Counted from the stretch's first letter, positions 2 through 25,745 are shown. The stretch is DNA of 32,000 bases from an uncultured Chloroflexia bacterium (GCA_963704755.1 OY969938.1:1080001-1112000); one strand, 5' to 3'. Notes: generated by a model not told the origin, from the letters alone. Numbers and translations are program-made.

Positions 2-358
2 AAAGATGGCAAATCGCTGTCTGCCAACCTGAAGGAAGCCATGCGCAACACCTGGTCGGCTTTCGAGGAGCAGGCGCCCGAGCTGTACACGCAGGCTTCC
101 GCAGACTACCACAAAGCCCTGTATGCGCTCTCGGGCCTGCACCGCGTGACCGAAATCTTGAGTGAAAACATCCTGGCGCACGAGATCTGGTACCGCGAAG
201 GTGCCATCCGCTACCCCGAACTGATTAAAAAAATGATCCTCGATCACGAGGCGATCCTGGATCTGATCCGTCACCGCGAGGACCAAAAAATTAACGGCGT
301 AATTGCAGCCCATGTCGAAAACTGCGAGCAAGTTTTAATCAAAGTCATCAAGGATTGA
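2..358 (+). CDS. C-terminal part of a transcriptional regulator, probably GntR family with an FCD (FadR C-terminal) effector domain; the 5' end lies outside the window
   Basis: The frame is open from base 2 to the stop at 356-358. The helical His-rich tail (DHEAILDLIRHRE...AAHVENCEQ) resembles FCD domains. No HTH is visible because the N-terminus is missing. Confidence 0.5.
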   Translation, partial: KDGKSLSANLKEAMRNTWSAFEEQAPELYTQASADYHKALYALSGLHRVTEILSENILAHEIWYREGAIRYPELIKKMILDHEAILDLIRHREDQKINGVIAAHVENCEQVLIKVIKD

Positions 359-2838: not shown

Positions 2839-3825
2839 ATGGCGCTTTCAAAAGAACGATTACTAAAGGTTTATGAGGACATGGTGCTCATCCGCCGCTT
2901 CGAAGAAGAGGTGGAGAAATACTCCAAGAACGGCACCATCCCCGGCTTCATCCATCTGAGCATCGGCCAGGAAGCGACCCAGGCCGGCATCATCGAAGCC
3001 TTGCGCGAGACCGATTACAAGTTTCCCGATCACCGCAGCCACGGCGCGATTGTGCTCGCCAGCCACCCGGAAAAGCGCAAGAATATTATGGCGGAACTGT
3101 TCGCCAAGAAGACCGGCATCAACGGCGGCCGGGGCGGGTCCATGCACGTCAACGACTTGAGCGTGCGCAATATGGGCTTCAACGCCATCGAAGGCTCGAC
3201 CGTGGTGACCTGCCTGGGTACTGCTTTCGCCTCGGTTTATAACCACACCGACGACGTCACCGCCGTGTTTATGGGCGACGGCACCCTGGGCGAAGGCACC
3301 TGCCACGAGAGTATGAACATGTCGGCTACCTGGAAGCTGCCGGTGCTTTACTGCCTGGTCAACAACCAGTACGCCATTTCGACCCACTACACCAAATCGC
3401 ACCCGCAAAAGCAGTTGGCCACCTGGGCAGACGGCTACGAAGTGTCCAATGAGATCGTGGACGGCAACGACATCGAAGCCGTGATCGATGCGGTCGAGCG
3501 CCACGTCACCCACCTGCGCGCCGGTGAAGGCCCGGCCCTGATCGAGTTCATGACCTACCGCTGGCAAGGCCACTTCTCCGGCGACCCGGCTGCCTACCGG
3601 CCGGAAGGTGAACTGGAAAAATGGAAAGAAAAAGACCCGATTAAAGTTACCCGCGAACGCCTGGCCGGCCAACATGGCGTCAGCGATGCGGAATTCGAAC
3701 AGATCCACGCCCGGGTTGAAACCGAGATAGCCGAATACATTCAATTTGCGCTGGAAAGCCCCAGCCCAGACCCGGAAGATGCACTCAAGCACGTTTATAT
3801 GGATATTGAGGTGGAGGGAAGATAA
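2839..3825 (+). CDS. Thiamine-diphosphate-dependent 2-oxoacid/acetoin dehydrogenase E1 alpha subunit (AcoA/PdhA type)
   Basis: The IRRFEE...GFIHLSIGQEA, GGRGGSMH and GDG...NN ThDP-binding pattern is typical of E1alpha. AGGAG RBS. The stop overlaps the next start (TAATG). Confidence 0.9.
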   Translation: MALSKERLLKVYEDMVLIRRFEEEVEKYSKNGTIPGFIHLSIGQEATQAGIIEALRETDYKFPDHRSHGAIVLASHPEKRKNIMAELFAKKTGINGGRGGSMHVNDLSVRNMGFNAIEGSTVVTCLGTAFASVYNHTDDVTAVFMGDGTLGEGTCHESMNMSATWKLPVLYCLVNNQYAISTHYTKSHPQKQLATWADGYEVSNEIVDGNDIEAVIDAVERHVTHLRAGEGPALIEFMTYRWQGHFSGDPAAYRPEGELEKWKEKDPIKVTRERLAGQHGVSDAEFEQIHARVETEIAEYIQFALESPSPDPEDALKHVYMDIEVEGR

Positions 3826-4803
3826 TGTCCAGGACACTTACTTTTTCGAAAGCCATCAACGAAGCGCTCCATCAAGAGATGGAACGGGATGAGAAAGTTT
3901 TTATCCTGGGGGAAGACGTGGCCAAAATGGGCGGCGACTTTGGCATCACCAGCGGCATCTGGAACCGCTGGCCCAAACGCGCCTACGATACTGCCTTATC
4001 CGAATCCGCCATCATCGGGCTCTCCTGCGGTGCAGCCGTGTGCGGCCTGCGCCCGGTAGCCGAGCTGATGTTCGCCGACTTCATCGGGGTGTGCTATGAC
4101 CAGATCATCAACAACGCCGCCAAGTTGTGCTACATGTACAACGGCCAGGCCAGCGCCCAGATCGTTGTGCGGGCCGTCACCGGCGGCGGCATCCGCTGCG
4201 CCTACCAGCACTCGCAGTGCATCGAGCCCTGGCTGATGAATATCCCCGGCCTGGTGGTCGTTGCCCCAGCCACGCCCTACGAAGCCAAAGGCCTGCTGGT
4301 ATCCGCCATCCGCAGCAACAACCCGGTCATCTTCCTGGAACACAAGGGCCTGTACAACACCAAAGGGGATGTGCCCGAAGAGCTGTACAGCCTGCCGCTT
4401 TATAAAGCCAACGTCGAGCGTGAGGGTACGGACATTACTTTAGTAGCCAGCATGTCCATGCTCAGCTTTGCCAAAAAAGCCGCCCAGGAATTGGAGAAAG
4501 ACGGTTTCTCCTGCGAGATTATCAACCCGCGGAACTCTCTTCCCCCTGGATAAAGAAACCATTATCAATTCCGTCGCCAAAACCGGCCGCCTGGTTATCG
4601 TCCAGGAAGGGCCTAAATTTATGGGCTACGGCGCCGAAATCGGCAGCATGATCTCTGAAGACGTGTTCGAATACCTGAAAGCCCCCATCCGCCGGGTAAC
4701 CTCGCTGGATACCCCCGTGCCATTCGCCCCGGTGATGGAAGATTATGTACTGCCCCATTATGATGATGTACTCAAAGCATGCCGCGAAGTAATGGCTTTT
4801 TGA
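3825..4803 (+). pseudogene. E1 beta subunit of the same complex, split by a +1 frameshift (a true pseudogene, a slippage variant or an assembly error)
   Basis: ORF 3825-4553 ends ...FSCEIINPRNSLPPG*. ORF 4468-4803 in the next frame continues ...TLFPLDKETIINSVAKTGRLVIVQEG.... Together they form a normal ~325-aa E1beta with the canonical (D/N)xR-xxx-PLD junction. One extra base lies between ~4533 and 4547, and a C5 run sits at 4542-4546. Confidence 0.8.
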
Positions 4804-4822
4804 ACCAAGGAAGGAGCTCGTT

Positions 4823-6061
4823 ATGGCCCACACGATAGTAATGCCAAGATTCGGAGCGACCATGGAGGAAGGCACCATCAACTCCTGGTCGGTCAAGGAA
4901 GGGGCCGTCATTAAAAAAGGCGACCTGCTGGGAGAAATCGCCATCGAAAAATTGACCAATGACCTGTTGGCCGAAGAAGACGGGATCGTTTTAAAACTCA
5001 TCGCCGATGAGGGTGACACGCTGCCCTGCGGCGCTCCCATTTTGGTCGTAGGTGAGCCGGGCGAAAGCCTGGATGACCTAGCGCCCGAACCCGCCGCAGA
5101 ACAAACGCCTGCGCCAACCCGGGTTGAGGTGGTGGCAGCCCCGGCGGCAATCGCTGCCGAAAGCGCTCAAGCCCCTGCAGGCGACTATGACAAATCAGCC
5201 CGCATCACCCCCAAAGCGCTCGAACTGGCCGAAGAATTAGGCATCGATTATCACTACGTCAAAGGAACCGGCCGTTTAGGCGCAATTACCCGCGAGGATA
5301 TCCGCGGCGCGCTCGAAACCGGCACAGCCCGCAAAGTCGCCGCGCCCGTCGCCAGCGCTCCGCTGGCCAGTGAAACGCGCGTCATGACCCAAATGCAGAC
5401 CACCATCGCCAGCGCAATGGAAGCCAGCCTCAAAAACACGGCCCAGACGACCATCTCGACCGACCTGGACGCCACCGCTATGGTCCAGGCCTACCAGGCT
5501 CACAAGGAAGAATATCGCCGCAGCGGGATCAAACTGACCTACACGGCCATCCTGGTCAAGCTGGTCGCCGCGGCTTTGATCGAACACAAAGACCTGCGCA
5601 CGGTCATCCAGGGTAATAGCCTGGTCACCCATGCCGAGATCAACATCGGCATCGCCGTGGACGTGCCGGATGGGTTGATGGTTCCCAACATCAAAAACGT
5701 GGACCGCAAAGACCTGCGCCAGATCGCGCAAGAGCTGGAAGACCTGGGGAACCGGGCCAGGAGCAATGCGCTCGGCCTGGACGACATCACCGGCGGCACC
5801 CTCACCATCACCAACCTGGGCATGTACGGCATCAAGTACTTTACCCCGGTGCTCAACCCCGGCGAAAGTGGTATTCTGGGAGTTGGCGCCGTACAAGACG
5901 TCGTCAGCGTGCGGGATGGCGGTATCTTCGTCAAACCGGTCGTCAATATCAGCCTGACCCACGATCACCGCGTGGTCAACGGCGCGCCGGCAGCTCGTTT
6001 CTTGCAAACCATCCAGCAAAAAATGATGGAATGCGCCACTTTATTCAACGACCAGGAATAG
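4823..6061 (+). CDS. Dihydrolipoamide acyltransferase E2 (lipoyl domain + peripheral-subunit-binding domain + catalytic domain; AcoC-like)
   Basis: N-terminal lipoyl domain with the lipoyl-Lys in GEIAIEKLTNDL (EK as in AcoC-type E2s, from memory). Ala/Pro linker. PSBD (ITPKALELAEELGIDYHYVKGTGRLGAITREDI). Catalytic LTHDHRVVNGA motif. Confidence 0.9.
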   Translation: MAHTIVMPRFGATMEEGTINSWSVKEGAVIKKGDLLGEIAIEKLTNDLLAEEDGIVLKLIADEGDTLPCGAPILVVGEPGESLDDLAPEPAAEQTPAPTRVEVVAAPAAIAAESAQAPAGDYDKSARITPKALELAEELGIDYHYVKGTGRLGAITREDIRGALETGTARKVAAPVASAPLASETRVMTQMQTTIASAMEASLKNTAQTTISTDLDATAMVQAYQAHKEEYRRSGIKLTYTAILVKLVAAALIEHKDLRTVIQGNSLVTHAEINIGIAVDVPDGLMVPNIKNVDRKDLRQIAQELEDLGNRARSNALGLDDITGGTLTITNLGMYGIKYFTPVLNPGESGILGVGAVQDVVSVRDGGIFVKPVVNISLTHDHRVVNGAPAARFLQTIQQKMMECATLFNDQE

Positions 6062-6068
6062 CGAATTC

Positions 6069-7031
6069 ATGATTAGCCTCAACAAGAACGTAATGCCTAA
6101 AGTCCACTACCTGATCGAGCATGCCGAACAGCTCGGCTGCCGCCACTTTTGCCTGGAGAATGGTACACATGTGATCGATATGGGCATCGAGCAAAAAGGC
6201 AGCTTCGAAGCCGGCAAACTCTTTGCCGAAATCAGCATGGCCGACCTGGGAAGCTGCCAGTTTACTACTTACGTCTTGCCCGGAGACATTTCGGTTATGG
6301 CCGTGGAAGTGTTCACGTCCGAGCCGGTGTTGGCCTGCCTGTGCAGCCAGATCGCCGGCTACCCGCTCTCCAGTGGGTCGTTTTCCACCATCGGTTCCGG
6401 CCCGGCCCGGGCCAAAGCTGCCCTGGCCCGCGATCACTGCTTCGAATATACCGATTACCGCGACGATTCTGACGAAGTGGTCATTGGCATCCAATCCACC
6501 AAACTGCCGGACGAAGTCATGGCCAACCAGGTAGCGCGTGAGTGCCAGGTCAAGCCGGAAGATGTTTATTTCCTGGCTCACCGCACCAACAGCATCGTTG
6601 CCTCGGTGCAGGTTTCGGCCCGCATCCTGGAACAGACCATCAACAAGATGATCAAAAAAGGCTTCGACCTGAACACGCTGCAATACGCACGCGGATTTTG
6701 CATGGTCGCCCCGGTTGACCTGGATCCCGAAGCCGCTATGGGTAAGATCAACGACTGCCTGCTGTACGGCGGCCGTTCGGAATTCTGGGTGAAGTGGGAA
6801 GACCAGAAAATCGATGAGATTTTACCCAAGCTGGTGACCGAATCGTCCAAAGACTACGGGCGCCTGTTCAAAGAGCTGTTCATCGAGGCCGAGCACGATT
6901 TCTACAAGATGGACCTGGATATCCACTCCCCCGCCACCGTGCAGATTGTGAATATGAATACCGGTAAACTGCACAAGGCCGGCCGCTTGCGCGAAGACCT
7001 GATCGCCAAAAGCTTTTTCGGCATCGAGTAA
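6069..7031 (+). CDS. Mch-family cyclohydrolase-like protein, paralogue 2
   Basis: 320 aa. GSGPARA, EDVYFLAHRTNSIVASVQVSARILEQ, INDCLLYGG, DFYKMD and a C-terminal TGKLHKAGRLREDLIAKSF. The start is 7 nt after the E2 stop, so it belongs to the same operon. Confidence 0.85.
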   Translation: MISLNKNVMPKVHYLIEHAEQLGCRHFCLENGTHVIDMGIEQKGSFEAGKLFAEISMADLGSCQFTTYVLPGDISVMAVEVFTSEPVLACLCSQIAGYPLSSGSFSTIGSGPARAKAALARDHCFEYTDYRDDSDEVVIGIQSTKLPDEVMANQVARECQVKPEDVYFLAHRTNSIVASVQVSARILEQTINKMIKKGFDLNTLQYARGFCMVAPVDLDPEAAMGKINDCLLYGGRSEFWVKWEDQKIDEILPKLVTESSKDYGRLFKELFIEAEHDFYKMDLDIHSPATVQIVNMNTGKLHKAGRLREDLIAKSFFGIE

Positions 7032-7040
7032 GGAAAGAGA

Positions 7041-7465
7041 TTCACCGCAGAGGCGCGGAGAGCACAGAGAAGAGAAAGAAACTAAGAAAAACTGTTGGGC
7101 GAAAGGGCAATAGCCTAAAGCAGTTCGGCCCGGTCTCCTGACCGAGGCCGCTCTTCAACCCAGTCAATTAATTCGCCGCAGAGGCGCGGAGTTCACAGAG
7201 AAGAGAAAGAAACTAAGAAAAACTGTTGGGCGAAAGGGCAATAGCCTAAAGCAGATCGGCCCGGTCTCCTGACCGAGGCCGCTCTTCAACCAGTCAATTA
7301 ATTCACCGCAGAGGCGCGGAGCGCACAGAGAAGAGAAAGAAACCAAGAAAAACTGTTGGGCGAAAGGGCAATAGCCTAAAGCAGTTCGGCCCGGTCTCCT
7401 GACCGAGGCCGCTCTTCAACCCAGTCAATTAATTCACCGCAGAGGCGCGGAGTTCACAGAGAAGA
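7041..7465. repeat. Tandem array of a ~131-bp unit (3 full copies plus a ~33-nt partial copy) downstream of Mch-like 2
   Basis: ttc(a/g)ccgcagaggcgcggag starts at 7041, 7172, 7302 and 7433 (periods 131/130/131). Copies are near-identical. The last partial copy pairs with an inverted imperfect copy (ctgtgatcttcgcgcct, ~7470-7488). Confidence 0.92.
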
Positions 7466-7556
7466 AATTCCTGTGATCTTCGCGCCTTGTATGGTAAAAA
7501 GAATATACGTCAGGCCGATTCGTGTTCTCCGTGGTTATTCTCCCTGTCCAGCCGAT

Positions 7557-7601
7557 AAGAGCGGCCTCGGCCTACTGTAAAGAGATGAGACCGGGCCGAT
7601 C
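7557..7601. repeat. Inverted partial copy of the internal segment of the 131-bp unit
   Basis: aagagcggcctcgg (7557-7570) and gagaccgggccgatc (7587-7601) are reverse complements of ccgaggccgctctt and gatcggcccggtctc, which occur in each tandem unit (e.g. 7254-7286). Confidence 0.7.
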
Positions 7602-7644
7602 CGCTATGGCTTTCTCATGTTCACTTGACAAAAACCAGAAATAT

Positions 7645-7690
7645 TGTCATTGCGAGCCCTGGCAAAAAGCGGCCAGGGCTCGCAATGACA
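7645..7690. repeat. Perfect 19-bp-stem palindrome (tgtcattgcgagccctggc / gccagggctcgcaatgaca)
   Basis: Arms at 7645-7663 and 7672-7690 are exact reverse complements, with an 8-nt loop. It lies in the spacer upstream of the lipoate ligase gene. Confidence 0.85.
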
Positions 7691-7789
7691 GACCCCCTTC
7701 TTGAGAAAGCCACAGACGACACTGCGAATTCCTCGATTTAATCCTCCAGCGGTAGTAAAATCTTAAACAAGTGTGGGAAATAAGATGCG

Positions 7790-8806
7790 ATGATTTACAT
7801 AGAGACGGGCTCAAGCTCTCCGCAGGTCAACCTGGCCTTTGAGGAGTATTTTCTCAAAACCAGGGCGCTGGGAGAGGACATCCTCATGCTCTGGCAGGAT
7901 GAACCGGCCGTCGTCGTTGGCCGGTTCCAGAACACGCTGGAAGAAATCGACCCGGATTATGTGCAAACCCATACCATCCCGGTGATTCGCCGCATCAGCG
8001 GCGGTGGAGCTGTGTATCACGACCCGGGCAACCTGTGTTTCAGTTTCATTTTCCAGGGCCTGCCTCCCCTGGCCATCGACCGGCCCAAGTTTGCCCGCCC
8101 CCTGGTCGAAGCCCTGGCACACATCGGCCTGAAGCCCGAACTAACCCCGCGCAGCGATATGTTGATCGACGGGAAGAAATTTTCGGGCAATGCCATGGCG
8201 CTGCACAAAGACCGCCTGCTTTATCACGGCACCTTGTTGTTCGATTCGGATCTGGATATCCTCCGGCGCGTGTTGCATGCACCGGCCGGGCAAGTCGAAT
8301 CGAAAGGGGTCAAATCAGTCCACGCCGGGGTAACCAACTTGCGGCCTTACCTGCCGGTAGAAATGGACCTGGAACATTTCAAAGCCGCTATGAAGAACCA
8401 GCTCTTGAGCGGCGGTCCCTGGAGCCCATACAGCCCGACCGCGGACGACCTGGCCGCCATCCGTGACCTGGTGGAAAGCAAGTACCTCTCTTGGGATTGG
8501 AATTTCGGCAATAATCCACACTGTATCGTCTCGCGCAGCGGCCATTACTCCGACGGGACCATCGAAATTCAATTCGAACTGGAAAAGGGACGGTTCAAAG
8601 ACTGTCATTTCAGCGCTGACCTGGCCGGAGCCAGCCAGATCGACGTGGTGGCCCGGAAGCTGAACGGCTTACGGTTCGAAGCCGGCGACATTCGCCTCGC
8701 CCTGGCCGGCCTGGAAGGCCCGGCGTACTTTGGGCCATTTCACAAAGAAGAGGTTATCCGCTGTTTATTGGGGGTTATCAATAATTCCGGAATTTCCTCC
8801 CTTTAG
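7790..8806 (+). CDS. lplA: Lipoate-protein ligase A
   Basis: GRFQN, RRISGGGAVYHDPGN and GKKFSGNA (lipoyl-AMP lysine region), plus a C-terminal accessory domain. 338 aa, the typical LplA length. Confidence 0.85.
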   Translation: MIYIETGSSSPQVNLAFEEYFLKTRALGEDILMLWQDEPAVVVGRFQNTLEEIDPDYVQTHTIPVIRRISGGGAVYHDPGNLCFSFIFQGLPPLAIDRPKFARPLVEALAHIGLKPELTPRSDMLIDGKKFSGNAMALHKDRLLYHGTLLFDSDLDILRRVLHAPAGQVESKGVKSVHAGVTNLRPYLPVEMDLEHFKAAMKNQLLSGGPWSPYSPTADDLAAIRDLVESKYLSWDWNFGNNPHCIVSRSGHYSDGTIEIQFELEKGRFKDCHFSADLAGASQIDVVARKLNGLRFEAGDIRLALAGLEGPAYFGPFHKEEVIRCLLGVINNSGISSL

Positions 8807-8839: not shown

Positions 8840-9055
8840 ACATCTGTAAAGCATGACTAAACCTTCGGGAAATATTGCTTTACAAGGCAATTATCTCGCC
8901 ACCCGGTTTGAGAGGTTCGCCAGTTTCACATTTTATTCAGCTCAAACCAGGTCTCTCTCACAACCCCCGAAATACACTAGACAACAATGGATTGGGCGGA
9001 AAGGAAATGAATTGGCCGTTTGATATGTCCGATATCTTCTTGTTTGGAGAATGTG

Positions 9056-9610
9056 ATGCAACCAGATAATTATGCAATGGGTCAAAGAATACGCAAACGG
9101 CGTGGGGATTTTTCGCTGAGTTTGCGTGATCTCGCCAAAAGAACCAGCTTGACCGCCTCGTTTCTGAGCCAAATCGAACGAGGTGTTATTTCGCCCTCAC
9201 TGAATTCGCTTCGCAAGATCTCCGAGGCGCTAGAAGTACCCTTGCTGTATTTCCTCTCCAACACGTCCGATCGCCCACCGGTGGTGCGGTCCAATTCACG
9301 GGGGCATATCGATCTCGAAGATTCGGCGGTGTTTTACCAGCTCCTCACCCCCGACATTTCGCACAAAATGGAGGCGGTTTTGGGTTCGCTGGAATTTTGT
9401 TCCGGCAATGTGGTCCGTTCGCTGTCCGTTCCGACCGAAGAGTTCGTCATGGTCCTCTCGGGTTCGTTAAAAGTGGTTTTGGAGAACGAGATCTACATCC
9501 TGGAGCCCGGCGACACCATCTATTTCGAAGGCGAACAATTGAGAGACCTTTCGTGCGCTTCGGAAGAAAAAGTAACCTGGGTTTCGGTTATTACGCCACC
9601 GGTGTTCTAA
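9056..9610 (+). CDS. XRE-family HTH + C-terminal cupin transcriptional regulator (PuuR-like architecture), paralogue 1
   Basis: HTH LSLRDLAKRTSLTASFLSQIERG. Cupin tail GDTIYFEGEQ...ITPPVF. I chose the ATG at 9056 (GGAGA 5 nt upstream) instead of the TTG at 9020. Confidence 0.85.
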   Translation: MQPDNYAMGQRIRKRRGDFSLSLRDLAKRTSLTASFLSQIERGVISPSLNSLRKISEALEVPLLYFLSNTSDRPPVVRSNSRGHIDLEDSAVFYQLLTPDISHKMEAVLGSLEFCSGNVVRSLSVPTEEFVMVLSGSLKVVLENEIYILEPGDTIYFEGEQLRDLSCASEEKVTWVSVITPPVF

Positions 9611-10993
9611 ATGAGCTACGATCTGGTCATCAAAGAAGGCACCCTGGTCACGAGCGACGGGGTTTACCAGGCCGACCTGGCCGTTCAGGGTGAGAAAATT
9701 GCCGCCGTCGGCAGCGGGCTGGCCGGCCGACAAGAGATTTCGGCCGCGGGTAAGCTGGTTCTGCCCGGCGGAGTGGACCCGCACGTCCACCTGGAAATGC
9801 CCACCGCGGTCACCGTCACCAGCGACGATTGGCAAACCGGCTCGAAGGCGGCCGCCTTTGGCGGCACCACCACCGTGATCGATTTTATCGAACCGGGCTA
9901 TGAACACCAGCCCCTGCTGGAAGCCTTCCAGGATTATTTGAACAAAGCCCAGGGCCGCTCGAGCATCGATTTCAGCTTCCACATGACGCTTTGCGATGCC
10001 AGGGCAGACACGCTCGAGCAGGTCCCAGGTGTGGTCGCGGCCGGCTTGCCCTCGTTCAAAGTGTATACCACCTATCCCGGCTTTCACCTGAGCGACGAAG
10101 AACTGCTGGCAGCTTTGCATGCCGCCGCCCAGGCCCACGCTCTGGTCCTGGTCCATTCCGAATCGGACGCCATCCTTCAATCCGAGGTGGATAAACTGCG
10201 CCAGGCCGGGCGCCTGGCCGTCAGCGATTTTCCCGGCAGCCGCCCCGCCCTGGCCGAAAAAGAAGCCATCCAGCGCGTCCTCACTTTAGCTGACTATGCG
10301 AAGTCCGCTGTTTATATTGTCCACGTTTCCACCGCCGCCGGCGCAGCAGCGATCCGGCAGGCTCGCCGGCAAGGCCAGGCCGCCTGGGGTGAAACCTGCC
10401 CCCAGTACCTGCTGCTGGACGAAAGCAAGTTGAAGACCGGCGGTTTCGAAGGCGCTAAATTCGTTTGCAGCCCGCCCCTGCGCCTGCCGCAGTACCAGCA
10501 GGCCCTGTGGACTGCCCTGCAAGAGAACGGTTTGCAAACGGTCGGCACCGATCACTGCGCCTTCAATTTCGTCGGCCAGAAAGACCTGGGAAAAGATTCT
10601 TTCCTGGACATTCCCTCGGGTTTACCGGGGATCGAGCTGCGGCTGGCCCTTTTGTACACCTACGGGGTCAAACCCGGCCGTATCGGCCTCGAACAGTGGG
10701 TCGAGCGCTGCTGTACGGCCCCTGCACGCCTTTTTGGCCTCTATCCGCGCAAAGGTGCCCTGGTTCCTGGGGCAGATGCGGATGTGGTCCTGTTCGATCC
10801 GCAGCGCTCCCAGCCGGTCAGCCGGGCGATCCTGCACGAAAACGTAGATTACACCCCTTACGAAGGGCTGCAACTAGCCGGCAAAGTGACCGATACATTT
10901 TTACGCGGCCAGCCGCTGGTGCGCGACGAGCGCTGGGTCGCCGGGCCGGCCGGCGGCGTTTTTCTGCCCGGCACACCCTTTCAAGCTGGATAA
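9611..10993 (+). CDS. Cyclic amidohydrolase: D-hydantoinase/dihydropyrimidinase (HyuA/Dht-like)
   Basis: GGVDPHVHL metal site, SFKVY (carboxylated Lys), VHSE, HVST and GTDHC. 460 aa. The start abuts the regulator stop (TAAATG). Confidence 0.9.
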   Translation: MSYDLVIKEGTLVTSDGVYQADLAVQGEKIAAVGSGLAGRQEISAAGKLVLPGGVDPHVHLEMPTAVTVTSDDWQTGSKAAAFGGTTTVIDFIEPGYEHQPLLEAFQDYLNKAQGRSSIDFSFHMTLCDARADTLEQVPGVVAAGLPSFKVYTTYPGFHLSDEELLAALHAAAQAHALVLVHSESDAILQSEVDKLRQAGRLAVSDFPGSRPALAEKEAIQRVLTLADYAKSAVYIVHVSTAAGAAAIRQARRQGQAAWGETCPQYLLLDESKLKTGGFEGAKFVCSPPLRLPQYQQALWTALQENGLQTVGTDHCAFNFVGQKDLGKDSFLDIPSGLPGIELRLALLYTYGVKPGRIGLEQWVERCCTAPARLFGLYPRKGALVPGADADVVLFDPQRSQPVSRAILHENVDYTPYEGLQLAGKVTDTFLRGQPLVRDERWVAGPAGGVFLPGTPFQAG

Positions 10994-11074: not shown

Positions 11075-11335
11075 ATCCTTCAGGCCAGACAGTCACAATA
11101 AAAGAAACACAAAGGGTTTTACGTCAACCCACGGTTTACAACAAGAAGTTGCAGTGATAAAATGAATTGTCCATACACTTCATCGCAATTTGACTAAACC
11201 GGCGTGGCAGCCCTTTCAGGATAATTTCCCCATCCGCAGCAGACAACCCAGCCCATACAGATGCAGTTTTCGCTTGAGAACTGTCCGCTTTCAAAACCTG
11301 TGAGGGAATTCGAATCCGTTTAAGGAGTTTTATTG

Positions 11336-11911
11336 ATGAGCGATACTACATTGCCTGACGATGAGGTCTTGAGATTAGGCGCACATATTAAAGGCAAGCG
11401 CAACGATCTTGGCATGAGCCTGCGCGACCTGGCGGCCGCGACCGGCCTCAGCGCCACATTTCTGAGCAATCTCGAACGTGGAATTGCTAATCCTACCCTC
11501 GATTCGCTGCGGAAAGTATCCAACGCACTCAACACGCCCATTCTGTACATGGCCAATACCATCCGCGAAACCAGCCCGGTAGTGCACAAAGCCCAGCGCC
11601 GCCAGCTCAACCTGTCCGCCGGGCACCTGCGCTACGAAATTCTCACCCCTACCCTCAATAAAAAAATGGTACTGTTCGAGGCCAAGGTCTGTTCGGAGGA
11701 CGGGAATATCGTGGTTGGCCCGTTGGCCGAGCCCACCGAAGAATGCCTGGTCATGCTCTCCGGGCGGATCAGCGTGTGCCTGTCCGGCCAATCCTACGAA
11801 CTGGAAGCCGGCGACAGCATTTATTTCGAAGGCCGCAGCCTGGAAAGTATTACCGTCGTCGGGGACGGAGAAGCCACCTATATTTCTGCCATCACGCCGC
11901 CAGTGTTCTAG
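11336..11911 (+). CDS. XRE-family HTH + cupin transcriptional regulator, paralogue 2
   Basis: MSLRDLAAATGLSATFLSNLERG and GDSIYFEGRS...ITPPVF, collinear with the 9056-9610 protein. ATG at 11336, with AAGGAG 8 nt upstream. Confidence 0.85.
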   Translation: MSDTTLPDDEVLRLGAHIKGKRNDLGMSLRDLAAATGLSATFLSNLERGIANPTLDSLRKVSNALNTPILYMANTIRETSPVVHKAQRRQLNLSAGHLRYEILTPTLNKKMVLFEAKVCSEDGNIVVGPLAEPTEECLVMLSGRISVCLSGQSYELEAGDSIYFEGRSLESITVVGDGEATYISAITPPVF

Positions 11912-12185: not shown

Positions 12186-13379
12186 GTGCAAACATACGAC
12201 GTCATCGTAATTGGAGGGGGATTCCTGGGCGTTGCTACAGCTTACGAGCTCGCCAAAACCGGCACGCGCACCCTTCTGCTGGAGGCTGGCGACCTGGGCA
12301 GCGGCACATCCGGTTCCTGTTCCGGCCGGGCCCAGGTATGCGAAGGGCATCTGGACCCCCTGAACATCGCCCTGATCCGCGGCGGGCTTGAAAAACACGA
12401 AACCCTGCCAGAAGAATTAGGCTGCGATTACGAATGGCACCGCGCCAGCCTGCTCCTGTTATTACGCAGCGAGCGGCTGCGCCAACAGTGGCTGGAACGC
12501 TCGGTTTTTCTGACCGAAGCCGGCATCCCTACCGAGGTGATCGACCGCGACAGTTTGCAGAAAGCCGAACCGCACCTGGACACAAGTACCTTACTGGGTG
12601 CTGCACACGCCATTGAAGGCAAGCTGAACCCCCTCAAGTTCGTCCAGGCTTATGGCGGGGCTGCCACCCGCCTGGGGGCAGACCTGCGGCGTAACGCCGC
12701 CGTCACCGGCATGGAAGTCTCCAACGGCCGCATCACCAGCGTAAAGACGGCCACCGAGACGTTTTCGGCCGGCACGGTGGCCGTGATGGCCGGCGCCTGG
12801 GAACCGGTCATCACCCGCATGGCCGGTGTGGAAGTGCCCATCCGCCACACCCACGCCGAATCGTTCATCACCGAGCCGATCCCGCCCATGATTTTCAACA
12901 ACATCGACCTGGCCGACAGCTACGAGATTATTCACGGCAAGCTGAAGGCGGTCACCATCGGCATTCACCCCGAGCCGAACGGCAGCCTGTCCATCGCCGA
13001 ATCGGTCACCCGCACCACCGAGCTGCACCACCGGGTCAGCTCGTGGAGCATCGCGGCCATGGCCAAAGAAATGGTCAAACTGTACCCCTTCCTGGAAAAA
13101 GTGCGCGTCATCCGCAGTTGGGGCCGGCCAACCTCCTTCACCCCGGACGAAGAGCCCCTGGTCGGCTGGGTGCCGCAACTGGAGAACCTGTACGTGGCTA
13201 CCAGCCTGATGGAAACCATCACCGTCGTCCCGCTGCTGTGCGAATGGATGGCCATGATGATCCGCGGCCAGAAGCCGCCCATGGATCTGGATCTATTTGC
13301 CCCGGCTCGTTTCCCCGAAAATTATCCATTCCCCGAAGATTCCGCTCCGCAGGCCAGGACCATCGATCATGCGAATTAA
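12186..13379 (+). CDS. FAD-dependent oxidoreductase, DAO family (beta/catalytic subunit of an HcnC / OoxB / sarcosine-oxidase-beta-like enzyme)
   Basis: N-terminal YDVIVIGGGFLGVATAYELAK dinucleotide fold. ~397 aa. GTG start with GGAGGG upstream. Confidence 0.85.
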   Translation: MQTYDVIVIGGGFLGVATAYELAKTGTRTLLLEAGDLGSGTSGSCSGRAQVCEGHLDPLNIALIRGGLEKHETLPEELGCDYEWHRASLLLLLRSERLRQQWLERSVFLTEAGIPTEVIDRDSLQKAEPHLDTSTLLGAAHAIEGKLNPLKFVQAYGGAATRLGADLRRNAAVTGMEVSNGRITSVKTATETFSAGTVAVMAGAWEPVITRMAGVEVPIRHTHAESFITEPIPPMIFNNIDLADSYEIIHGKLKAVTIGIHPEPNGSLSIAESVTRTTELHHRVSSWSIAAMAKEMVKLYPFLEKVRVIRSWGRPTSFTPDEEPLVGWVPQLENLYVATSLMETITVVPLLCEWMAMMIRGQKPPMDLDLFAPARFPENYPFPEDSAPQARTIDHAN

Positions 13380-13674
13380 TCCCTCCAACTCACTCTTACC
13401 AGAAATTCAAAGGGGCAAAACCGTACAAATTACGGTAGACGGCCGGCCGGTAGAGGCTTTCGAAGGCGAGACTATCGCCGCCGTTCTGCTGGCCCTGGGC
13501 ATCTGGGCCTTCCGCCACAGCCCAAAGAACAAAGAAGAGCGTGGCATTTACTGCGGTATGGGTATTTGCTACGAATGCCTGGTGACCGTGGATGGCATCC
13601 ACGCCGTGCGGGCTTGCGTCACTCCCGTGGCGGACGGCATGCAGGTGGATACCTGCCAGGAGATGGCATTATGA
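13369..13674 (+). CDS. Small (2Fe-2S)-binding subunit (HcnA / Fer2_4-like)
   Basis: VDGRPVEAFEGETIAAVL...CGMGICYECLV...AC cysteine pattern. The ATG at 13369 overlaps the preceding gene by 11 nt. The longer ORF-track start at 13297 lies inside the preceding gene. Confidence 0.75.
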   Translation: MRINPSNSLLPEIQRGKTVQITVDGRPVEAFEGETIAAVLLALGIWAFRHSPKNKEERGIYCGMGICYECLVTVDGIHAVRACVTPVADGMQVDTCQEMAL

Positions 13675-15086
13675 GCGAAACCTGCCAACTCGCCGTCATT
13701 GGAGCCGGCCCGGCCGGCCTGGAAGCCGCCATTGCTGCCGCCGAAGCGGGCGTAGATACGATCCTCATCGACAGCGCTCTGCGGGCAGGCGGCCAATATT
13801 ACAAACCCCTGCCGGCCGCTTTCCGGCCCCTGCGCCAAACCGGGACGGAAAAGGAAGGCGAAAGCCTGGTCGCCCGGCTGGAACGTAGCGGCGCCAAACG
13901 GATCTACGACGCCCTCACCTGGGGGCTGTTCACCGAAGAAGATGGGAACGGCTACCGGCTGTGCCTGTCGGTGGCCGGCTCGCCCCGCCAGATCCACGCG
14001 GACCGGCTGGTCCTGGCCGGCGGCGCCTACGATACCCCCCTGGCTTTCCCGGGCTGGACCCTGCCGGGCGTATTAACCTGCGGCGCCGCCCTGAACCTGC
14101 TCAAGAACCAGCGCGTCGCGCCTTTCAAGCGGGTGCTGGTCAGCGGGACCGGGCCGCTCTCGCTCTCGGTCGCGGCCCACCTGGTCGCCGCCGGCGTCGA
14201 GGTTGCCTGCCTGTGCGAAGCCAACCACATTCCGTTGAGCGCAGCCGGCTATGGCCCGCAAATGTTAGGGCATGGACACCGCATCACCGAGGGCATTCAA
14301 TATGTCTCTACGCTCATCGGCGGGGGCACGCGCGTCCGCATGGGCTGGTCGGTCGTCGAAGCGCGCGGAAAAGAGCGCGTCGATCAGGCCGTCATCGCAA
14401 AGCTGGATAATTCCGGCGCTCCCATTCCCGGCAGCGAGCAGGTCCTTGCAGTAGATGCCGTCATCTGCGGCTTTGGGCTCACCCCCAACAACGGCATGGC
14501 CCGCATGCTTGGCTGTCAATTCGCAGTGGACCCCGCCAATGGAGAATGGGTTCCCCGGCGCGACGGCCGCATGCAGACCAGTTTACCGGGAGTGTACATG
14601 GCCGGCGATTGCGTCCAGATCAACGGCGCCGAGAACGCGCGCCTGGAAGGGCGCCTGGCCGGCACCGCGGCCGCCCTGGACTGCCAGCGCATCTCCCCCG
14701 CCCAGGCGGACCACACTTTCGCCCAGATCCAGCCGGCCTTGAGCCGCCAGCAGCGCTACGGGCGCATGCTGGCCAAACTGTTCCCGCTTAAAGCGGGCCT
14801 GCGCACCCTGGCTCACGACGAGACCTACGTCTGCCGCTGCGAAGAAGTGACCCAGGGCATGGTCAAAGCCGCCATCGCCGCCGGGGCAACCACGATCGGT
14901 GAGGTCAAGATGGTCACCCGGGTGGGAATGGGCAACTGCCAGGGCCGCATTTGCGAACAGACCATCGCCCGCATCATCGCTCAGGAACTTTCCAGCGATC
15001 CAGCTTCTGCCGGCATGTACACCATCCGCCCACCCCTGCACCCCCTGCCGATCGGCTTCTTCGCCAAAGATGAGCAGGAAATTTAA
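13671..15086 (+). CDS. FAD/NAD(P)-binding oxidoreductase subunit with a C-terminal BFD-like [2Fe-2S] domain (HcnB / OoxA-like alpha subunit)
   Basis: LAVIGAGPAGLEAA, a second Rossmann fold (VLVSGTGPLSL), GDC, and a C-terminal CRCEEVT...GNCQGRIC. ATGA overlap with the upstream stop. Confidence 0.85.
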   Translation: MSETCQLAVIGAGPAGLEAAIAAAEAGVDTILIDSALRAGGQYYKPLPAAFRPLRQTGTEKEGESLVARLERSGAKRIYDALTWGLFTEEDGNGYRLCLSVAGSPRQIHADRLVLAGGAYDTPLAFPGWTLPGVLTCGAALNLLKNQRVAPFKRVLVSGTGPLSLSVAAHLVAAGVEVACLCEANHIPLSAAGYGPQMLGHGHRITEGIQYVSTLIGGGTRVRMGWSVVEARGKERVDQAVIAKLDNSGAPIPGSEQVLAVDAVICGFGLTPNNGMARMLGCQFAVDPANGEWVPRRDGRMQTSLPGVYMAGDCVQINGAENARLEGRLAGTAAALDCQRISPAQADHTFAQIQPALSRQQRYGRMLAKLFPLKAGLRTLAHDETYVCRCEEVTQGMVKAAIAAGATTIGEVKMVTRVGMGNCQGRICEQTIARIIAQELSSDPASAGMYTIRPPLHPLPIGFFAKDEQEI

Positions 15087-15294: not shown

Positions 15295-15536
15295 TATTCA
15301 CATCCTGATGTCCGCCAGGACGTCGGTAAAACCCCACAACGAACACCCTCTGGTCCCCTCATACCCAGAGCTGGGTCGTGGCCAGGCAATCGCCTGGCTG
15401 CGCCGAAATTATCCATAGTGTTTCCGCGAATTACACACAACGGGCACAGGATCTTTATTCGTATTTTACCGGTACGGGGTTTTACCGACAAACAGTACTT
15501 CTCATCCAACAATCCCAATGCAGGAGAATAGATTCC
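15295..15536 (+). promoter_or_regulatory. Long candidate 5' leader with a closing long-range helix (possible cis-regulatory RNA)
   Basis: gtcggtaaaacccc (15322-15335) is the perfect complement of ggggttttaccgac (15476-15489). An alternative partner, ttttaccg, lies at 15464-15471. Internal hairpins include gccagg-caatcg-cctggc and ctctgg...ccagag. ORFs here have no recognisable protein features. Confidence 0.3.
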
Positions 15537-16337
15537 ATGGAATACACCGGGTACCTTGATTTCTGGTTCACCGACCGGCCCATGGTCGAACGGATAGAGC
15601 CGATGGTAAAACTCGGCTTTCGCCATTTAGACGTGTGGTCCTGGCGCCAGCAGCCCATGGCCGAACTGGCCGCCGAATGCCGCCGCCTGGGCGCAGTGCT
15701 TAACTCCGTCTTCGATGACCACATGGGCAACCTGGCCGACCCGAACGATAACGAGCTGACTTTACGCACCTGGTCCGAGAGCCTGGAAATGGCTACCCGC
15801 TTTGGCGTCGAGCACCTCTTCCTGTTTTCCAACCAGGTGGACCTGATCGACGGGCATACCTGGACCCGGCGCCTTTCCTCCAATTTCACTGAAGCCGAGC
15901 AATACGCCAATACGCTCAAGCAGACCGAAAAGATCCTCAAGCTGGCCGAGCGAACCTCCGTCAAAGTTTGGATCGAAGCGCTGAATGAGTTTCACATCAA
16001 GGGCGGCGTGCTGGTTCACAACCACGAGATGGCCGCGGATTGGGTGCGCCGCATCGACCACCCGCAGTTGCGCATGGTCTTCGACTGCTATCACCAACAG
16101 CGCGGTTCCGGTGACCTGATCTGGGGCCTGGAACAATATGCCGGCCTGTACGAGGCCGTCCACATTGCCGACGTACCCACCCGCCAGGAGCCCGGCACGG
16201 GTGAAATCAACTTCACCAATATCCACAAAAAGCTGGTGGAATTGAACTACGACGGCTTTATCGGACTCGAATTCTACCCATCCACCAACGAAGCCGAAGC
16301 GCTGGAAACTGTAAAAAAGATCATGCCGCTCGGCTGA
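15537..16337 (+). CDS. Xylose-isomerase-like TIM-barrel protein, hydroxypyruvate isomerase (Hyi/OtnI) family
   Basis: The C-terminal block [13 protein letters not shown]...[19 protein letters not shown]...[11 protein letters not shown] matches the Hyi pattern (YDIYH...[15 protein letters not shown]...Y.GW.G.EY.P) as I recall it. ATG at 15537 after AGGAG. Confidence 0.8.
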
Positions 16338-16362
16338 GCCGGCCAGAAAAGGAAGAGCAGCC

Positions 16363-17160
16363 ATGCCGATTCGCAGGCTCAACCATATTTTCAAAGCGGA
16401 TGGACGCGCGCTAATCGTCGCCTTTGACCACGGCCTGACCGAAGGCCCGACCAAGGGCATGGAGAACGCCGGCGAGACCCTCGAAAAAATCGCAAACGGC
16501 GGCGCAGACGCCATTCTGACCAGTTACGGTGTGGCCAGCCGCTTCGCCCGGCAAATTTCCGGCCTGGGGTTGATCCTGCGCCTGGATGTCGGCGGCACCA
16601 AAATCGGCAAGATGGGCCCCGGCAAACCGTTTTTCAGCGTGGAAGATGCCTTGCGCCTGGGCGCCGACGCCGTCGCCGTTTCCGCTTTCCCGGGTACGCC
16701 CCAGGAATCCGAGACGATGCAGACCTTGGCCCACACCATTGGCGCAGCCCATCCCTGGGGCATGCCGGTCATGGCCGAGATGCAGCCGGGTGGCTTCGAT
16801 GCCGGCCCGGAATACAATACGGCCGAGAACATCGCCATTTCCGCCCGGGTTGCCGCCGAACTGGGCGCCGACTGGGTTAAAGTGCCGTTCGTTAAGGCCT
16901 TCGACCAGGTCGTACGGTCATGTTACGTCCCGGCGGTCATGTTGGGCGGGGTGAAAGTCAACGACGAAAGCCTCTTGCTCGAAATGGTCTGGGGCGCAGT
17001 AGCTTCAGGCGCGGCCGGGGTAGCCATCGGGCGCAATATTTTCCAGGCCGAAGACCCCCAGGCGATCGTCACCGCCATTAGCGCGATCCTGCACCAGGGC
17101 GCCAGTGTGGACCAGGCCGTCGAGATCTACCGCCAGCACCACGCCGGCCAGAAACACTGA
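16363..17160 (+). CDS. Class I aldolase of the DeoC/FbaB (DhnA, LsrF, ADH-synthase) family
   Basis: LIVAFDHG, a Schiff-base lysine context DWVKVPF, and [10 protein letters not shown] at the C-terminus. 265 aa. Confidence 0.85.
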
Positions 17161-17181
17161 GAGCCTATCTAAAAAATATTT

Positions 17182-17230
17182 TTCAGGTATTTATTTTGGG
17201 AGGCAAAACCGCCCAAAATAAATACCTGAA
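17182..17230. repeat. AT-rich palindrome with a 19-bp perfect stem between the aldolase and kinase genes
   Basis: ttcaggtatttattttggg (17182-17200) is the exact reverse complement of 17212-17230. Confidence 0.85.
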
Positions 17231-17278
17231 GCGATTTACGGATAGAACCTGAACCACACCAATGCGGAGCCTGACTGA

Positions 17279-18959: not shown

Positions 18960-19937
18960 ATGCAAGGCTATAGTCTCAATCATACTGCGGTTGGGATCAT
19001 CAAAGATGCGATTACCAGGGCTGACGAATTTCAGATCCGCTCATGGCGCGCCGAGTGTGGTAGTACCCTGGTCGATATGGGTTTGACCTGTCCGGGAAGT
19101 TGGAAAGCCGGCCAGGCTTTCGTCGAAGCAGGTTTTGGCGGGATGGGCAAGGCCACCTACGGCAAGTTCGATATCGGCCCCTTCACCGTACCCTCCATCG
19201 ACGTATGGGTGGATCACCCGGTTTTAGCCGTGGTGGCCTCTCAGGCTGGCTGCTGGGAGTTAGGTTCAGGCGAACTGGCCGAGATCGGTTCCGGCCCTGC
19301 CCGGGCCGTGGCCCTGGCCGATCGCTGGGCCGGGCACGGTTACCGCGACCCCGATCCGAGTGAAGTCGTCGTCCAACTCCAGACCCACCGGGTGCCTTCC
19401 GATGATCTCTGCCGGGCCGTGGCGGATGCCTGCCACCTGCCGCCGGAGAAAGTGTACGTCGTGTTTGCGCCCACTGCTTGCCTGGTAGGCGCTATCCAGG
19501 TGGCCTCCCGCACGGTAGAACAGGTCATGATCAAGCTGTTCATGCGCGGTTTCGACATTCACAGCGTGAAATATGGCTTTGGCACTGCCCCGGTCGCCCC
19601 GCTGGTCAACGACGAAGCCGAGGTTATGGGCCGCGCCAACGACGCCCTCTTCTACGGCGCCACCACCGTGTTGTACGCCGATGTACCCGATGAAACTATT
19701 AGTGCCATCATCAACAACTTCTGCTTCGACGTCAACTCGGGTGAATTCTGGGGCACGCCGTTCGCCTCCATCTTCGACCATTTCCATCACAACTGGTTCG
19801 AAGTGCCCGACCTGGTCAACTCACCCGCCAAGGTGATCATCAACAGCCTACAAACCGGGCATTCTTTCGTCGGTGGACAGATCAACCGGGAAGTTCTGGC
19901 ACGCTCCTACTTCGGTTACGATCTGACCGCCAAATAA
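18960..19937 (+). CDS. Mch-family cyclohydrolase-like protein, paralogue 3
   Basis: 325 aa. GSGPARA, EKVYVVFAPTACLVGAIQVASRTVEQ, ANDALFYGA and a C-terminal TGHSFVGGQINREVLARSYFG. AAGGAG RBS 5 nt upstream. Confidence 0.85.
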   Translation: MQGYSLNHTAVGIIKDAITRADEFQIRSWRAECGSTLVDMGLTCPGSWKAGQAFVEAGFGGMGKATYGKFDIGPFTVPSIDVWVDHPVLAVVASQAGCWELGSGELAEIGSGPARAVALADRWAGHGYRDPDPSEVVVQLQTHRVPSDDLCRAVADACHLPPEKVYVVFAPTACLVGAIQVASRTVEQVMIKLFMRGFDIHSVKYGFGTAPVAPLVNDEAEVMGRANDALFYGATTVLYADVPDETISAIINNFCFDVNSGEFWGTPFASIFDHFHHNWFEVPDLVNSPAKVIINSLQTGHSFVGGQINREVLARSYFGYDLTAK

Positions 19938-20022
19938 TTCCTTCTCAACTTCGAAAACAACCAAACCATCCTGTAAACCTGTAAAAACGATCGCCTGATC
20001 CTCTACTTGGAGATTGGACACG

Positions 20023-21336: not shown

Positions 21337-21373
21337 CAACCCAATCCGAACTCATTTATATGGCCTGAAACGT

Positions 21374-24210: not shown

Positions 24211-24271
24211 CCCGCCGAAGAGTTATTTGTACCTATTTACCGGTTGTTTTGAACTGTTTACAGAAACAATG

Positions 24272-24359: not shown

Positions 24360-24381
24360 ATTTATCCCCTATGGAGGAAGT

Positions 24382-25685: not shown

Positions 25686-25745
25686 GACCCTTTCCGAATA
25701 GCCGGGCAGCTACAAACCATTTATAAAAATACAGGAGAAACTAAA

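Follow-up and report, generated by a model that had tools for sequence, protein, structure and literature searches.

A conserved operon that couples Mch-family genes to a ThDP/lipoate-dependent dehydrogenase complex, with a possible role in anaerobic breakdown of purine-type compounds

The closest described counterpart of the genes considered here is the acetoin dehydrogenase system (AcoA, AcoB, AcoC and AcoL) together with butanediol dehydrogenase. It shares with them a heterotetramer-type thiamine diphosphate (ThDP)-dependent E1 of alpha and beta subunits, a lipoyl-bearing E2, an E3 (in relatives of the present locus) and an adjoining classical short-chain dehydrogenase/reductase (SDR); a common logic is plausible, in which a carbinol is oxidised to a ketone that is then cleaved with ThDP to give an acyl-CoA. 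Methenyltetrahydromethanopterin cyclohydrolase (Mch) has, to our knowledge, a single job, one step of tetrahydromethanopterin (H4MPT)-dependent one-carbon (C1) metabolism. Both kinds of gene meet in a 32,000-nucleotide stretch of DNA from an uncultured Chloroflexia bacterium (GCA_963704755.1 OY969938.1:1080001-1112000), the whole of which we call the window, and across phyla this E1/E2 clade has an Mch-family gene as a constant partner in its operon. Unlike the acetoin system, the module has a GntR/FCD regulator rather than AcoR and sigma-54, holds one or two Mch-family genes within it, has deaminase, reductase, xanthine dehydrogenase (XDH) and nucleobase transporter genes as partners, and encodes an E1 alpha with only 36-42% identity.

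To obtain relatives, one genome per GTDB species was scanned and loci were chosen by similarity to the window's Mch-like protein; the best 80 of 193 relatives were taken, as 79 loci, and the window's proteins were mapped onto them by tblastn. Of the 79 loci, 59 have E1 genes no more than 5 kb from an Mch-like gene, as do 46 of the 50 whose flanks extend at least 5 kb on both sides. The carriers belong to five phyla: Chloroflexota, Bacillota (Clostridia, Oscillospiraceae, Pseudoflavonifractor, Halanaerobiales, Peptococcaceae and some genomes labelled C. difficile), Spirochaetota, Fusobacteriota (one metagenome-assembled genome, MAG) and Actinomycetota (Acidimicrobiales). The order GntR-SDR-Mch-E1alpha-E1beta-E2-Mch recurs in another Chloroflexota genome and in one Clostridia genome, and a Christensenellaceae MAG has Mch-Mch'-SDR-Mch-E1alpha-E1beta-E2-E3-small ORF (open reading frame)-LplA. 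In an Acidimicrobiales variant with about 45% identity in E1 alpha and about 40% in Mch, E1alpha-E1beta-(E2)-SDR-Mch are still together. The conserved core of the operon is SDR, Mch-like, E1 alpha, E1 beta, E2 and Mch-like, with or without E3 and lipoylation genes.

Approaching the cluster from the E1 side gave the same picture. Within the Mch-linked clade, E1 alpha is 65-86% identical across phyla (65-100% among the best 120 homologues), and at least 16 E1 alpha matches apparently lie on the same contigs as Mch matches, to judge from equal lengths of the longest contig. Look-ups starting from two E1 alpha homologues (68% and 66% identity) were again Mch-linked and led to the same cluster as look-ups from the Mch side. 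The closest inspected E1 alpha outside the clade, on a Vescimonas plasmid (42%), belongs to a different cluster that lacks Mch, namely FCD-TRAP transporter-metallo-beta-lactamase (MBL) hydrolase-E1-E2-Lpd-LplA. The idea that an ordinary acetoin or pyruvate dehydrogenase operon came to lie beside unrelated Mch genes by chance has nothing in its favour beyond the generic family names; the synteny in 46 of 50 full-flank loci from five phyla, together with the Mch-less Vescimonas cluster, rules it out, and we give it next to no probability. The original prediction, made from the window alone, had named the Mch-family gene as a fixed partner of E1/E2 and had staked the idea on synteny in related genomes; the partnership was borne out and the synteny was found to be kept.

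In the window the module lies on the plus strand. Pfam and NCBIfam profile searches of the window's ORFs, judged against curated equivalog cut-offs, place E1 alpha, of an aco-like ThDP-dependent branch, at 2839-3825 (PF00676); E1 beta at 3825-4803; E2, a dihydrolipoamide acyltransferase, at 4823-6061, with lipoyl (PF00364), E3-binding (PF02817) and catalytic (PF00198) domains; and Mch-like 2, of a subfamily we call MCH2, at 6069-7031 (PF02289; TIGR03120, 312.3 bits against a cut-off of 228.8). E2 retains the DHRVVNG motif and the lipoyl lysine in an IEKL motif. Upstream are a classical SDR oxidoreductase (ORF 396-1166, with a probable start at 435 that gives 243 amino acids, as in relatives; PF00106, E=6e-61) and Mch-like 1, of subfamily MCH1 (1178-2140; PF02289, E=6.5e-104; TIGR03120, 317.5 bits, also above 228.8); downstream is the lipoate-protein ligase LplA (7790-8806; TIGR00545, 340.8 bits against 280). 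The ORFs and domain calls agree with the gene list of the original prediction throughout (SDR, Mch-like 1, E1 alpha, E1 beta, E2, Mch-like 2, LplA), and remeasurement returned exactly its spacings: a TAATG overlap of E1 alpha and E1 beta at 3823-3827, a gap of 19 nt from E1 beta to E2, and one of 7 nt from E2 to Mch-like 2. A frameshift in E1 beta, a third Mch-like gene at 18960-19937 and the purine-catabolic setting, all described below, did not figure in it.

The window edge cuts a GntR/FCD-family regulator gene, of which the 3' end, encoding the C-terminal part, is present (2-358, plus strand; PF07729 FCD) in a frame open to nt 2; relatives have a full-length GntR-FCD regulator gene immediately 5' of the SDR. 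The SDR falls below all NCBIfam equivalog cut-offs (for example BudC, 173.5 against 270), and its gene was found in 49 of the clustered related loci. Mch-like 1 stands between SDR and E1 alpha in most Bacillota and Anaerolineales loci. In some C. difficile genomes (L084 and L085, 8717-9005) a 290-nt gap without an SDR separates XDH from Mch, and other genomes labelled C. difficile (L047, 9217-9975) retain the SDR. In several Clostridia an additional pair of Mch genes, one of 335 amino acids and a truncated, very divergent copy of 241, accompanies the module (L003, 219-1948; L018, L023 and L042).

The complex resembles the pyruvate dehydrogenase (PDH) complex in the domain architecture of its E1, E2 and E3, and PDH models are the top NCBIfam matches of both E1 subunits. 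Unlike that complex, it fails the curated equivalog cut-offs (TIGR03182, 316.6 against 393.85; TIGR03181, 239.5 against 411.35), E2 lies below every one (NF008814, 234.6 against 722; TIGR01349, 222.1 against 445), and its proteins form a distinct, highly conserved clade tied to Mch. An ordinary pyruvate dehydrogenase, the other outcome that the original prediction had named as fatal to it, is not what the curated models recognise here. Among annotated plasmid records, E1 alpha has 36-42% identity (about 210-224 bits) to generic or aco-type thiamine pyrophosphate (TPP)-dependent dehydrogenase E1 alpha subunits (Klebsiella, 37.8%; Thermus acoA, 38.1%; Enterococcus), about 30% (about 121-124 bits) to bkd-type subunits and 27-36% (102-144 bits) to proteins annotated as pdhA. 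The earlier label "acetoin-type" has partial support, in that these nearest annotated relatives are aco-type or generic TPP-dependent E1s; the identity is modest, the regulator is of the GntR/FCD rather than the AcoR type, and no acetoin-specific feature was seen. E1 forms a separate, tightly conserved clade for which acetoin-type is the nearest label only.

As the original prediction had said, the 32 kb encode no E3: tblastn with two cluster-encoded E3 proteins gave no match in the window at E≤1e-3. The weight given there to the missing E3 was too great. Many loci of Bacillota and Spirochaetota have the E3 gene within the cluster, in most cases with a small ABM/TIGR03792-type ORF after it, so that the absence of E3 here is lineage-specific; in the Anaerolineales lineage, as in this window, it is not found in the 10-kb flanks. 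Because E2 retains its E3-binding domain, the simplest reading is that an lpd gene lies elsewhere, unlinked to the cluster. The window's only Pyr_redox_2 protein (13566-15086) was considered as a substitute for E3 and rejected, since it has no Pyr_redox_dim domain and carries BFD and SO_alpha_A3 domains instead. Lipoylation genes (for LplA, an LplA-B_cat protein and LipA) recur in the related clusters, which fits the complex as a main user of lipoate in these anaerobes.

The Mch-like proteins resemble Mch (EC 3.5.4.27; PDB 1QLM, 4GVQ) in PF02289 and TIGR03120 membership, in length and in a SARxxE motif, and Mch-like 2 is about 45% identical to the M. kandleri enzyme (1QLM). The motif is invariant, with R185 and E188 of Mch-like 2 kept in 19 of 19 aligned sequences. 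E188 aligns with the sole difference between 4GVQ and 4GVR, a Glu-to-Gln change, and the Glu of the motif (E186 in A. fulgidus) is one that we take to be catalytic in Mch. Unlike that enzyme, these proteins occur in fermentative bacteria, have no H4MPT-linked C1 genes nearby, come as several paralogues per locus and are encoded in a lipoate/ThDP operon. The nearest homologues of Mch-like 2 are in Anaerolineales, Clostridia, Spirochaetales and Christensenellaceae. The window has three Mch paralogues in 32 kb, and loci elsewhere have up to four. The third, Mch-like 3 (18960-19937, plus strand; PF02289, E=2.1e-85), is more divergent, being 31% identical to Mch-like 2; it lies between an FGGY kinase and an SsnA-like amidohydrolase and falls in a clade of its own (MCH3) with 'MCHa' proteins. 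Its orthologues in other Anaerolineales (about 80% identical; L011, L012 and L014) are followed by an aldo-keto reductase gene instead.

In a neighbour-joining tree, archaeal Mch is set apart and the bacterial proteins fall into at least four groups, namely MCH1, MCH2, MCH3/'MCHa' and an Acidimicrobiales/Chloroflexota type. Of 78 alignment columns invariant in 15 archaeal Mch sequences, only 28 keep a conservation of 90% or more in MCH1 as well as in MCH2. All bacterial groups share the fixed substitutions C38M, E140Q, T225I and A281S; others, such as A169H and N302R in MCH2, are fixed in a single subfamily. These sequence patterns suggest that the Mch-like proteins have kept the catalysis of Mch and changed its specificity. 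No fae, ftr/fhc, mtd or H4MPT-biosynthesis gene was present in the 45 neighbour families that occur most often, or among the annotated neighbours, in the 79 loci. The name given to these genes by annotation pipelines, 'methenyltetrahydromethanopterin cyclohydrolase', is probably wrong.

To see which other genes travel with the module, all ORFs of the related loci were clustered without prior labels. An amidohydrolase of the TRZ/ATZ, 8-oxoguanine or 5'-deoxyadenosine deaminase type occurs in 33 loci, and the PDB entries that match it best are atrazine chlorohydrolase, methylthioadenosine/S-adenosylhomocysteine (MTA/SAH) deaminase and 8-oxoguanine deaminase. Almost always directly adjoining it is a RibD_C-like protein of 330 amino acids (26 loci), whose PDB matches are pyrimidine reductases of the riboflavin pathway (the labelled but weaker matches 2AZN and 6P8C); PDB 5XUX, presumably archaeal Rib7, is set aside here as unconfirmed. 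XDH molybdenum and FeS subunits occur in 17 and 15 loci, parts of a BMP-family ATP-binding cassette (ABC) transporter in 14-28 loci and an NCS2 xanthine/uracil-type permease in 8. Further recurrent partners are an FGGY kinase (13 loci), a DeoC aldolase (9 loci, from three phyla), a pair of DAO and Pyr_redox_2/BFD proteins, and luciferase-like proteins. The C. difficile-type locus comprises an M19 dipeptidase, DUF5058, Amidohydro_3, NCS2 permease, XDH, (SDR), Mch, E1 alpha, E1 beta, E2, amidohydrolase, RibD_C-like protein and E3. Some Anaerolineales loci (L009 and L011-L014, at about 7.5-18 kb) contain genes for the RibD_C-like protein, amidohydrolase, MCH2, DAO, Pyr_redox_2/BFD, a TIM protein, DeoC, FGGY, MCH3 and an aldo-keto reductase, with no E1/E2 nearby; these gene sets indicate that MCH2 is able to travel with the reductase and deaminase pair alone.

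The window itself resembles the reductive uric-acid/2,8-dioxopurine cluster (XdhD, YgfK/UacX, SsnA, HyuA, YgeW/UacY, YgeY and YgeX), in which a ring is reduced and then hydrolysed (PMC12507026), in having SsnA-, HyuA-, YgeW- and YgeY-like, XDH and luciferase-family genes. Downstream of LplA lies a HyuA-like D-hydantoinase/dihydropyrimidinase gene (9611-10993; TIGR02033, 487.7 against 393.25), which also follows LplA in L005, L008 and L015. A DAO-type flavoprotein and a Pyr_redox_2/BFD/SO_alpha_A3 protein (12186-15086), similar to sarcosine or opine oxidase pairs, adjoin the module in L003 and MCH2 in L009-L014. Then come genes suited to handling sugars or polyols, for a xylose-isomerase-like TIM protein, a DeoC-family aldolase and an FGGY kinase (15378-18787), and, at 20014-27883, genes for an SsnA-like amidohydrolase, XDH FeS and molybdenum subunits, a luciferase-like (LLM) oxidoreductase, a YgeW-like carbamoyltransferase and a YgeY-like M20 hydrolase; all are on the plus strand. 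No YgeX-type PALP lyase dependent on pyridoxal phosphate (PLP) was seen in the window's gene annotation. In Chloroflexota SsnA neighbourhoods of the reductive uric-acid pathway, a putative F420 enzyme of the luciferase family is reported in place of YgfK/UacX (PMC12507026). The rest of the window thus resembles, by sequence, a Chloroflexota variant of that cluster, and we claim resemblance only. The published uric-acid clusters differ in having no Mch, Rib7-like reductase or E1/E2 (PMC12507026; bioRxiv 10.1101/2025.04.24.650524).

We tentatively read the segment as the core of a conserved catabolic operon by which a purine-type N-heterocycle or nucleoside is broken down under anaerobic conditions, and give this reading slightly less than even weight. 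It is drawn from the recurrent amidohydrolase and RibD_C-like pair, the XDH-like genes and the nucleobase and nucleoside transporters. From gene content, synteny, family assignments and conserved catalytic residues we infer a substrate class, an order of steps and a chemistry, as follows. The compound would be taken up by the BMP-type nucleoside ABC system or the NCS2 nucleobase permease. A deaminase-type amidohydrolase and a Rib7/RibD_C-like, NADPH-dependent C=N reductase may then prepare or dearomatise the ring, joined in some lineages by the XDH-like enzyme; this step would parallel that of YgfK and SsnA in the known urate pathway. By analogy with Mch, the metal-free Mch-like enzymes, with catalytic Arg and Glu kept, could act on the unsubstituted carbon of a cyclic amidine or amidinium (N-CH=N) and form an N-formyl amine by hydrolysis. 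This would be the same chemistry as that from methenyl- to formyl-H4MPT, and a C-H counterpart of ring opening by hydantoinase and SsnA, and separate Mch paralogues may act on separate intermediates. The SDR would oxidise a carbinol of the opened skeleton to a ketone, which the aco-like ThDP E1, lipoyl-E2 and a shared E3 would cleave or oxidatively decarboxylate, with the formation of an acyl-CoA, reducing equivalents and the potential for ATP. The original prediction had envisaged a ThDP-dependent C-C cleavage acting on a keto intermediate and making or using the substrate of the Mch-like enzyme; this is plausible, and the purine-catabolic context gives it a concrete setting.

Several observations weigh against the purine-type reading. 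The proposed chemistry is argued by analogy. Since the reference Mch sequences are all archaeal, the differences fixed in the bacterial groups may reflect phylogeny rather than function, and since the TIGR03120 equivalog cut-off is passed and identity to M. kandleri Mch reaches about 45%, a pterin-bound C1 substrate is possible. MCH2 occurs without nearby E1/E2 in some Anaerolineales (L011, L012 and L014), so that the coupling is not absolute, and some C. difficile genomes have the cluster without the SDR. The urate-pathway context amounts to resemblance because the SsnA-like (261 against 455.5, TIGR03314) and YgeW-like (213 against 500, TIGR03316) proteins fall below curated cut-offs. Finally, no riboswitch or other Rfam element that might name the ligand was found in the window or in seven loci from Bacillota, Spirochaete and Fusobacteria genomes.

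The point about pterins leads to a different account of the operon, in which the Mch-like proteins are true methenyl-tetrahydropterin cyclohydrolases acting on a tetrahydrofolate (THF)- or H4MPT-like carrier. E1/E2 would cleave a hydroxyketone or 2-oxoacid, with capture of a C1 unit at the formaldehyde or formyl level on reduced pterin; SDR and Mch would act as a pair like FolD, and the RibD_C-like protein would keep the pterin reduced. Beyond the equivalog match, the identity to 1QLM and the conserved catalytic residues, it can draw on the membership of the RibD_C-like protein in the DHFR-type fold family, on Pterin_bind and corrinoid methyltransferase genes that adjoin the module in Halanaerobiales and Sediminispirochaeta, on a luciferase-family gene (the family of Mer) beside Mch in the Acidimicrobiales and Chloroflexota variants, and on the sarcosine-oxidase-like pair with its SO_alpha_A3 domain nearby. 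We nevertheless consider it rather unlikely. Three to four Mch paralogues per locus are hard to fit with a single C1 step, the H4MPT-linked genes listed above do not appear among the frequent or annotated neighbours, the subfamily-specific substitutions fall at positions invariant in archaeal Mch, and the SDR is dispensable in some C. difficile clusters. Moreover, Clostridia and Spirochaetota already have FolD and Fhs, and we know of no report that they make H4MPT.

Alternatively, the complex could stand at the far end of a pathway, as a dedicated dehydrogenase that converts pyruvate or another small 2-oxoacid, a C3 pathway product (for example pyruvate from diaminopropionate or serine), to acetyl-CoA, with Mch acting far upstream and linked to it by co-regulation only. 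The known reductive urate pathway ends in pyruvate (PMC12507026), and both the PDH models as best NCBIfam matches of E1 alpha and E1 beta and the standard PDH-like architecture of E2, with its E3-binding domain, would suit such a role. Its failure to reach any PDH, 2-oxoglutarate dehydrogenase (OGDH) or E2 equivalog cut-off, the closer similarity of E1 alpha to aco-type proteins than to pdhA, and the lack of such a complex in characterised urate clusters (PMC12507026; bioRxiv 10.1101/2025.04.24.650524) count against it, as does the tight, often overlapping SDR-Mch-E1-E2-Mch packing, which is kept even at 40-45% identity; we regard it as distinctly unlikely. Within the purine-type reading there is also a more specific proposal, which is a long shot: the Mch-family enzymes would be cyclohydrolases of the purine imidazole ring, or of an N7-alkyl-imidazolium such as that of 7-methylguanine-type compounds, and would open a catabolic route independent of Mo and Se. 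That route would run the first riboflavin steps (cyclohydrolase, Rib7-like reductase, deaminase) on a guanine-type nucleoside, after which a ribityl or deoxy-polyol side chain or a C3 skeleton would be cut by SDR and the ThDP-lipoate complex to yield an acyl-CoA. The trio of early riboflavin biosynthesis, GTP cyclohydrolase II/III, Rib7/RibD reductase and pyrimidine deaminase, would be mirrored, by analogy, in the Mch-like, RibD_C-like and amidohydrolase proteins. Unlike in riboflavin biosynthesis, the cyclohydrolase and deaminase here come from unrelated families, and a regulator, transporters and an acyl-CoA-forming complex give them a catabolic setting. If true, the proposal would give anaerobic purine degradation a new branch, present both in gut Clostridia and in Chloroflexota, Spirochaetota and Actinomycetota from the environment. 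Other candidate substrates were considered (creatinine/N-methylhydantoin, a sepiapterin-like pterin side chain, riboflavin or ribityl-lumazine, 5'-deoxyadenosine, and methanopterin from necromass), and none was favoured over a generic purine type.

The field of anaerobic purine and N-heterocycle degradation, to which the context genes tie the module, was opened only in 2023-2025 by the reductive urate/2,8-dioxopurine pathway. A literature search of incomplete coverage found nothing that connects Mch homologues or PF02289 with purine catabolism or with dehydrogenases for acetoin or 2-oxoacids. The urate-pathway papers mention no cyclohydrolase in their main text and no 2-oxoacid-, lipoate- or ThDP-dependent enzyme (PMC12507026; bioRxiv 10.1101/2025.04.24.650524). 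What appears to be new here is the probable joining of a catabolic ThDP/lipoate operon to anaerobic N-heterocycle degradation, with Mch as an unprecedented partner family. A multi-phylum operon that sets two to four Mch paralogues beside a lipoate/ThDP complex in fermenters implies a second, unrecognised function for the Mch fold. With gut bacteria among the carriers (some C. difficile, Pseudoflavonifractor, Oscillospiraceae, Christensenellaceae), the pathway could bear on the purine and urate balance of the host. The existence of cultivable carriers, among them C. difficile strains with the locus (for example assemblies GCA_001299495.1 and GCA_945909465.1), Pseudoflavonifractor gallinarum DSM 107456 and Pseudoflavonifractor sp. 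MSJ-37, makes the question directly testable.

In the window's own copy of the operon, E1 beta is not a single ORF. It runs from 3825 to 4553 and continues, in the +1 frame, as 4468-4803, owing to the insertion of one nucleotide near 4531-4534; when four related operons are aligned with it, the extra base falls in CGGAAC (4530-4535), where relatives read CGC-AC. Removing it in silico restores an E1 beta of 325 amino acids, exactly the length in relatives, that is 85-90% identical to theirs through the C-terminus. The insertion is a fault of the assembly or else a lesion of very recent date. Two blocks of tandem repeats also interrupt the gene order, one of 169 nt in 3.6 copies between Mch-like 1 and E1 alpha (2192-2802) and one of 131 nt in 3.3 copies between Mch-like 2 and LplA (7040-7465). 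Where relatives have about 18 nt between Mch-like 1 and E1 alpha, this genome has 700 nt of repeats, and a terminator-like hairpin on the plus strand (2148-2165; a consensus match only) lies directly 3' of Mch-like 1. With repeats at its junctions, the first preceded by this hairpin, the local operon is physically in three pieces.

Together, the two repeat insertions and the insertion in E1 beta mean that the local copy may be damaged, unless the extra base is an assembly error. That the module is decaying in this genome, with a real frameshift and an operon broken in three by the repeats, is possible, if doubtful. The 1-nt difference from four relatives, the repeats in junctions that are about 18 nt long elsewhere and the hairpin 3' of Mch-like 1 would all fit decay; against it, the protein encoded 3' of the frameshift is still 85-90% identical, with no further lesion, no other split gene was noticed among about 27 genes of the window, and the source assembly is a single contig of 4.87 Mb. 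Single-base indel errors are common in single-contig assemblies of this kind.

The 169-nt repeats 5' of E1 alpha contain four copies (2266-2802) of a 30-nt motif, AAAATCTGTGTCCATCCGTGTTCATCTGTG. A fifth copy, where chance predicts none, lies at 24326-24355 and precedes the probable ATG (24383) of the luciferase-like gene by about 27 nt; the flank at 24270-24325 resembles a degenerate copy of the repeat unit. Possible identities of the motif are a dispersed promoter or operator element and a small mobile repeat. The 131-nt repeats and LplA are separated by a 325-nt spacer, in which a long hairpin with a perfect 19-bp stem (7645-7690) was scored as a terminator-like site on the minus strand.

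In the Halanaerobiales and Sediminispirochaeta loci (L038, 3155-8350; L027, 571-1878 and 12536-13351), the module has as neighbours genes for a corrinoid protein, a URO-D-like methyltransferase, a Pterin_bind protein and a GH31 glycosidase, which hints at a methylated and/or glycosylated substrate in these lineages. In the window, two paralogous helix-turn-helix (HTH)-cupin regulators (9020-9610 and 11333-11911) flank the hydantoinase gene and have in common a 40-nt stretch of 83% identity (repeat family D6); in many related loci, homologues of these regulators adjoin the module. The only minus-strand gene found among ORFs of 150 amino acids or more (29322-31859) encodes an 845-amino-acid fusion of EIIA-Man, HPr and Enzyme I, a multiphosphoryl-transfer protein of the phosphotransferase system (PTS).

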